A DNA stretch of 64,000 bases. Source: Eledone cirrhosa. Lineage: Eukaryota. This document shows, piece after piece, positions 63,423-63,682 of the stretch (within the stretch, counting starts at the first letter, position 1; the number at the start of each line of letters is the position of its first letter). The notes under the pieces are model-generated. The model searched no databases. It was not told the origin of the DNA and saw only the letters and a list, made by a program, of their open reading frames with translations. Made by a program: the position numbers and the translations under genes. The stretch is taken from NCBI GenBank assembly GCA_964016885.1, contig OZ024748.1, positions 12,834,001 through 12,898,000 of the forward strand, written 5' to 3'.

Positions 63423-63682
63423 AATATATTAACAAATGGAAACTATACTTATAAAACCATATTTATTTCATTATACATATTTCAAGGGCCACCAAGGCAA
63501 ACTATGGTGCGCTTTCATCAGATAAAATATAATATAGGTTAGTTTTATAAATAAATATTGACATAACCTGAAAAAATGCAACCATTCTGGTTGGAATCTC
63601 TTGAATTCATTAGTGACCCTAGAAATATGTATAATAAAATAAATATGGTTTTATAAATATAGTTTCCATTTGTTAATATATT
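63423..63682. mobile_element. Fold-back element carrying H2 HHR
   Basis: About 70-bp inverted arms (63423-63492 vs 63613-63682) with several mismatches, ending in (TA)n. Confidence 0.65.
63465..63528 (-). ncRNA. Type I hammerhead ribozyme motif (family H2)
   Basis: Minus strand: ATTTTAT-CTGATGA-AAGcgCACCA(tagtttgcct)TGGTGgccCTT-GAAA-TATGT-ATA-ATGAAAT. Canonical core, long stem II, very short near-palindromic stem III, AUA triplet. The inverted arm reads ATAAAAT, which is the perfect stem I partner. Confidence 0.75.

Follow-up and report, generated by a model that had tools for sequence, protein, structure and literature searches.

A candidate type I hammerhead with a self-complementary stem III in a truncated Penelope-like element of Eledone cirrhosa

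The window (the whole stretch of Eledone cirrhosa DNA analysed, 64 kb in length) was scanned on both strands for type I hammerheads with strict and relaxed patterns, and a single match was obtained. This match, H2, was a complete type I hammerhead core on the minus strand at 63529-63464 (Table 1), carrying C3 U4 G5 A6 N7 G8 A9, G12 A13 A14, the A15.1-U16.1 pair and a permitted H17. None of 200 block-wise dinucleotide shuffles equalled it in strictness. Stems I, II and III surrounded the core, which was open at stem I, and covariation was present; stem III was marginal in the monomer. The CUGAUGA/GAAA core that the preliminary description had placed on the minus strand was confirmed, and its stem I of 7 bp was corrected to 8 bp, including one G-U pair, with outer helices predicted to extend to about 63551/63448. 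The extended stem II described there was recovered, interrupted by a C-C mismatch and a bulged G, and the stem III described as nearly self-complementary was indeed palindromic, the RNA octamer being fully self-complementary by way of two central G-U pairs. Pairs 10.1-11.1 and 15.2-16.2 were A-U and U-A, whereas G-C and C-G, respectively, are usual. An AUA site and A-U pairs at such positions tend towards slower cleavage. The Rfam hammerhead models gave no match in the 64-kb window at the gathering threshold, and the short H2 stretch folded no better than its shuffles (z from -0.32 to 0.73). The case for H2 was therefore drawn from its core, from covariation and from its context, with no weight placed on folding energy.

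Table 1. Features of the H2 hammerhead and its host element in the window
Feature	Position	Strand	Basis
Main arm, 276 nt, 5'-truncated pLTR of a putative Hydra-clade Penelope-like element	63331..63606	-	identity to long copies
Inverted 5'-truncated partner arm	63613..63682	+	66/70 bases equal to main arm
(TA)n tract at the end of the inverted arm, likely insertion target	63683..63698	.	sequence; (TA)n also terminates most family copies
Stem I 5' arm, 8 nt	63522..63529	-	scan; pairing probability 0.2-0.9 by context length
Core CUGAUGA (C3-A9)	63515..63521	-	sequence
Stem II, 31 nt: 3 bp, C-C mismatch, 6 bp with bulged G, 10-nt loop	63484..63514	-	
Core G12 A13 A14	63481..63483	-	sequence
Stem III octamer AUAUGUAU, self-complementary, two G-U pairs; predicted two-copy pairing	63473..63480	-	
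H17 = A, AUA cleavage triplet; predicted cut 63472/63471	63472	-	sequence
Stem I 3' arm, 8 nt	63464..63471	-	scan

The main arm, in which H2 lies, shared 97.8% identity with the long family copy L033 over 277 nt and 96.4% with another, L073. The inverted arm contained the 3' side of stem II, GAAA, stem III, H17 and the 3' arm of stem I, and stopped 58 nt beyond the cut site without a CUGAUGA. It had earlier been said to keep only the 3' half, which held, and to occupy 63622-63640, which was too short. The 3' end of the main arm was located 141 nt beyond the predicted cut. Both distances, +58 and +141, recurred as ends of family copies: among 30 loci, the 3' end lay at +141 in 20 and between +123 and +150 in 5 more, and none was found in the other 5. 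Most family 3' ends ran on into AT or CA repeats, and the window copy had (TA)n at one end only. With the element ORF as tblastn query, neither the window nor the 10 kb surrounding its end gave a match, indicating that the window element is a solo fragment.

In comparison with the corresponding part of the main arm (63414-63483), the inverted arm had at one stem I position the base that sister subfamilies typically show, and the private change of the main arm at 63448 was absent from it; the two arms may derive from different templates or may have diverged later. The output of a repeat finder on the 56-64 kb region was dominated by microsatellites. Two further structures were observed nearby. 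An inverted pair of another repeat family at 62493-62613 had CUGAAGA, a short stem II and GAAAC in each arm, and it went unscored in the hammerhead scans because stem I seems to have lost its 5' arm at the centre of the inversion. A third family was represented by two GC-rich hairpins, each with a GAAAC half and no CUGANGA, at 63054-63163 and 63250-63330; the latter directly adjoined the H2 copy at its 3' end, without an intervening (TA)n.

A 161-nt query against the species' own 3.0-Gb genome returned 728 candidates, and the 40 that were scored gave 57 matches, mostly 95-100% identical. Long copies continued upstream into sequence coding for a reverse transcriptase (RT) and a GIY-YIG endonuclease, which bears out the earlier attribution of H2 to a Penelope-like element (PLE). 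For the ORF survey, 20 long-frame loci were chosen from 144 matches, and the longest ORF encoded 743 amino acids (L056:4433-6661). In L073, an identical hammerhead was located downstream of a 520-aa frame carrying RLRWR, KSDKT and LYRDD, with NYVGST, CxxC and CxH in other frames. In L059, a member of a sister subfamily with 90% identity, a 662-aa frame was flanked by two hammerheads separated by 3,691 nt; intact hammerheads of the same family on either side of the ORF were found in 1 of the 20 long-ORF loci. Taken across the long-copy proteins, the motifs were RW[RH], DKT, YRDD, CxCx5Cx5C, YVG, CxxC and CxH, the third residue of the RWK motif being R or H. Per locus, in decayed copies, DKT was retained in 12 of 15, RW[RH] in 6 of 15 and YVG/YIG in 14 of 15. 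The motifs of a single ORF joining RT to a C-terminal GIY-YIG domain, as in endonuclease-bearing (EN+) PLEs, were found in L073, L056, L058 and L059, and the structural traits of such elements were also found, namely hammerhead-containing pLTRs, the direct pair in L059, inverted 5'-truncated copies and ends at +58/+141.

Homologs of the ORF numbered 97 at E<=1e-10, with 31-41% identity, and nearly all were unnamed. A Pfam search with pieces of the ORF and with the 743-aa ORF yielded no significant family, and a PDB sequence search with the ORF yielded nothing meaningful. Many homologs of the 743-aa L056 protein carried precomputed PF26215 or PF28514 annotations. The Hydra clade of PLEs is marked by RWK, DKT, a CxCx5C linker, and CxxC and CxH around conserved E and N residues, and the published PLE pattern combines fixed ends and a tail with truncated partners in inverted orientation and insertion at TA targets (both from PMC8557442). 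In a comparison by eye, the L056 ORF aligned motif by motif with Hydra-1_Obim. By these motifs and this match, the carrier of H2 appears to be a Hydra-clade PLE. The Nematis clade, considered first, was dropped against the published definition of the Hydra clade. In L014 (300-1445), GC-richer sequence that by eye resembled another RT gene was joined to an H2 copy at its 5' end.

The exact 66-nt H2 motif occurred in 147 copies in the genome, against 0 for the control pattern, indicating that the window copy carries the family state and that the family keeps the core. A wider class, defined by a pattern with the core fixed together with stem I and the outer bases of the octamer, had 72,878 genome matches (control, 0), and a pattern that left stem I free and fixed the basal part of stem II had 80,880. 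H17 was A in 100 of 100 among the matches listed, even though any H was allowed. Stem II was examined in 122 distinct flanked copies forming 38 clusters, a sample enriched in H2 and including 20 regions hand-picked for diversity. The three basal pairs were kept in 37, 37 and 36 of the 38 clusters, with exchanges among A-U, G-U and G-C, and position 4 was unpaired in all 38 (C-C in 26, C-U in 10 and C-A in 2). A register with a bulged base, that is, an extra base before 10.1, was rejected because it failed at pair 3 in every one of these clusters. Stem I was nearly invariant though unconstrained, 25 of 30 loci fitting U-R-U-U-U-U-R-U / A-U-R-A-A-A-U-A. The details new here are the sequence-invariant stem I, the AUA site and, in stem II, the C-C/C-U mismatch that is conserved; we found no description of the family's stem II mismatch or AUA site in the literature, and supplements, Repbase or Dfam may contain the family.

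Hammerheads of different subfamilies were also observed on the same strand at distances of 300-430 nt (G000:C1:1604567/1604926, 1639601/1640026 and 3547143/3547449). These pairs probably arose by nested insertion into shared TA tracts, and they could form mixed dimers if co-transcribed. Beside the PLE copies, other abundant hammerhead families had 6-nt palindromic stems III (ACUAGU, AUGCAU), at oriented positions 1189, 8413, 8835 and 9592 of L059, 672 of L067 and 6290 of L032.

The central dinucleotide of the stem III octamer was UG in 27,886, CG in 21,828, UA in 21,783 and CA in 530 of the 72,878 genome matches. Thus, the centre was able to pair in 98.1% of the class, versus 0.7% with CA. In a monomer the central bases would form a loop and have no need to pair, whereas in a dimer they would pair with those of the twin copy, so their complementarity favours the dimer. 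The conserved symmetry of a self-complementary stem III, the mark of a dimer-type PLE hammerhead, was found genome-wide, as pairing between two copies would require. About four-fifths of 100 CA rows among the matches listed belonged to GCGC subfamilies and resembled CpG decay. On a tree of the 38 cluster representatives built with stem III excluded, the centre changed 9 times (the least possible being 4), with 2 changes needed for CG. CA was the state of no cluster, and 2 of the 38 clusters had non-pairing centres (GG and TC, each from a single copy). Because few independent events, that is, few changes in master copies, stand behind the copy counts, the support from covariation is good and not overwhelming.

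The predicted energies of the monomer and of the two-strand arrangement agreed with the dimer reading. In the monomer, both pairs of stem III were A-U, with a cost of +2.9 kcal/mol and a probability of 0.00. When the inverted arm was folded with the 5' part of H2 as two strands, the unconstrained fold formed stems I and III, and the two-strand hammerhead fold lay 1.2 kcal/mol above it. Several results speak against an easy dimer reading. No other palindrome of the class was as weak as the H2 octamer (-2.2 kcal/mol versus -10.5 kcal/mol for AUGCGCAU). In a swapped H2 dimer, octamer formation gained 0.8 kcal/mol, and the minimum free energy structure was another fold, 4.5 kcal/mol lower. The H2 octamer can pair with 2 of the 3 other common octamers, indicating that it does not act as a family password. 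Among the matches listed, which covered 100 of the 147 exact copies, no same-strand neighbour was detected within 20 kb and 14 inverted pairs were found; the tandem H2 copies sought in the preliminary description were accordingly not encountered among these 100.

We consider it probable that H2 is a type I hammerhead from the pLTR of a Hydra-clade PLE that cleaves weakly and mainly through a stem III formed by two copies, the solo copy in the window being likely inert. In the mechanism that we propose, a transcript starting in the upstream pLTR would read hammerhead, ORF and hammerhead over about 3.7 kb. A single copy would be unable to hold stem III, and two copies, either in both pLTRs or in separate transcripts, would exchange strands to give an 8-bp stem III. 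The paired copies would then cut after AUA, releasing unit-length RNA that could be trimmed or circularised. The RT/endonuclease of the element would copy RNA into (TA)n from fixed starts 58 and 141 nt past the cut, and such copying would leave the truncated, inverted structure seen in the window copy. Insertion ends were compared in 30 copies selected solely by a 26-mer downstream of the cut. In 29 of the 30, the copy crossed the cut site by at least 11 nt upstream, and the remaining one broke nearby in TA-like sequence; no pile-up of 5' ends at the cut site was seen in these 30 copies. These results indicate that the templates were uncut or religated, in line with the in vitro dispensability of the anole PLE hammerhead in PMC11167929. 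Cleavage, if real, would then serve processing or circularisation and not the definition of insertion ends.

One alternative is that H2 is active as a monomer, its stem III of 2 bp and a tetraloop being held by a tertiary contact between stem I and the stem II mismatch. Such a contact would suit the near-invariant stem I (25 of 30 loci) and the unpaired position 4 of stem II, which begins with C in all 38 clusters, and invertebrate retrozyme hammerheads with 2 bp and a tetraloop cleave well alone (PMC7229834). In view of these type I monomers, we do not call the dimer mode obligate. However, complementarity of the central bases (98.1% pairing versus 0.7% CA) would be purposeless in a loop, and the monomer stem has two A-U pairs only, with its predicted probability of 0.00, so we regard this alternative as unlikely.

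It is similarly improbable that what preserves the fold is a non-catalytic function, such as binding of the element's protein, marking of the RT start or 3'-end formation, with negligible cleavage. The derivation of 29 of the 30 copies from uncut or religated RNA agrees with such a role, as do the weakness of PLE hammerheads in vitro (PMC4209133) and their dispensability in the anole system (PMC11167929). In addition, AAUAAA lay across the cut or at most 7 nt from it in 104 of 109 distinct variants, a count made without a control in A/U-rich sequence. H2 itself, however, has AAUGAA across the cut, with AAUAAA only 5 nt further on. Moreover, the catalytic core and H17 were conserved across deeply diverged subfamilies, for which selection on catalysis is the best explanation.

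A non-autonomous tandem retrozyme, with 150-450-bp repeats giving small circular RNAs, is very improbable: type I hammerheads with a weak palindromic stem III do occur in retrozymes of animal genomes (PMC7229834), but the absence of same-strand neighbours and the 14 inverted pairs among the 100 exact copies listed, together with the extension of long copies into the RT/endonuclease ORF, speak against it. With no non-coding head-to-tail repeats of 150-450 bp found, the classification of H2 as a non-LTR retrozyme was largely refuted. Finally, a chance match within AT-rich repeat DNA, for which the Rfam null and the folding z-scores near zero could be cited, is almost certainly wrong given the 0 of 200 shuffles, the 72,878 genome matches versus 0 with the control pattern, and the compensatory changes in stems II and III.

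H2 alone is of little weight, as one among about 73,000 similar leftovers. The many subfamilies of the class do allow the dimer model to be tested by natural covariation, since the three pairing centres are common and the non-pairing transition state is rare. Palindromes ranging from -2.2 to -10.5 kcal/mol on one stem I also constitute graded constructs for the in vivo role of the PLE hammerhead. A more speculative and quite improbable extension is trans cleavage on the scale of the genome, carried out by about 75-80 thousand copies of many subfamilies that have in common one stem I sequence, one AUA site and palindromes able in part to pair with each other. The 5' product of a cut element RNA would then be an enzyme for any copy-bearing transcript, even one with a core-less half copy such as the inverted arm, and the C-C/C-U mismatch would make an undescribed tertiary contact. 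If trans cleavage of half copies were true, the repeat fragments carried by host transcripts would become targets of the ribozyme.

Among the closest known systems are the Hydra elements of Craig et al. 2021 (PMC8557442, File S2). These share with the H2 family the C-terminal endonuclease and the RW[RK], DKT, CxCx5C, CxxC and CxH motifs, as well as insertion into (TA)n, truncated copies in inverted orientation and a tail that is optional. In both, a type I hammerhead with a short symmetrical stem III lies downstream of the ORF; the stem III loop in Hydra-clade hammerheads is 0-3 nt (PMC8557442). The differences concern details. Stem III reads AC...GU in all 26 Hydra rows listed in that source, whereas H2 has AU...AU and an AUA site; stem II of H2 is longer than in those hammerheads and has the conserved C-C mismatch; the tail is 83 nt in the H2 family versus 30-40 in the Hydra elements; and Hydra-1_Obim has a dissimilar hammerhead sequence. 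Several Hydra hammerheads in print in PMC8557442 have non-pairing loops of 1-2 nt, which counts against the dimer reading.

In the PLE hammerheads described by Cervera and De la Pena 2014 (PMC4209133), helix III is small and palindromic, and most of the motifs stand alone or lie on opposite strands; a Schistosoma motif showed no cleavage as a monomer and low cleavage as a dimer. H2 resembles the D. virilis, rotifer, shrimp and mosquito types given there, in which a palindromic helix III has a 2-nt insertion, and it shares with the types of that paper a long irregular helix II, mostly solo or opposite-strand copies and a proposed dimer mode. Unlike these types, it has no extra base between 9 and 10.1, a longer helix I of 8 bp, and A-U in place of the usual G10.1-C11.1. 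The classification of H2 as a minimal hammerhead was rejected, given its 8-nt stem III, the lack of an extra base between 9 and 10.1, and A-U at 10.1-11.1; H2 is thus not of the minimal PLE type named in the preliminary description, which is loop-less, and instead represents a variant already in print, whose helix III is small and palindromic.

The short-stem-III PLE hammerheads of Lunse, Weinberg and Breaker cleave as dimers, as summarised in PMC6765202. According to that summary, they resemble H2 in the diminished stem III and the association with PLEs, and the H2 family may be among their representatives. The dimer model has been reviewed in PMC6765202 and PMC7761336. Animal non-LTR retrozymes (PMC7229834) likewise have type I hammerheads with a weak helix III, and those of amphibians show dimer rescue; in contrast to them, H2 lacks short tandem arrays and its element encodes its own RT and endonuclease. 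The anole PLE hammerhead cleaves in vitro and is dispensable there for insertion (PMC11167929). Palindromic dimer-type PLE hammerheads and the dimer model are thus already published, the kind having been described since 2014, and with this arrangement in print the finding of H2 is an ordinary one. As far as its sequence can tell, H2 fits the dimer-type PLE hammerheads and the Hydra clade on every testable feature.
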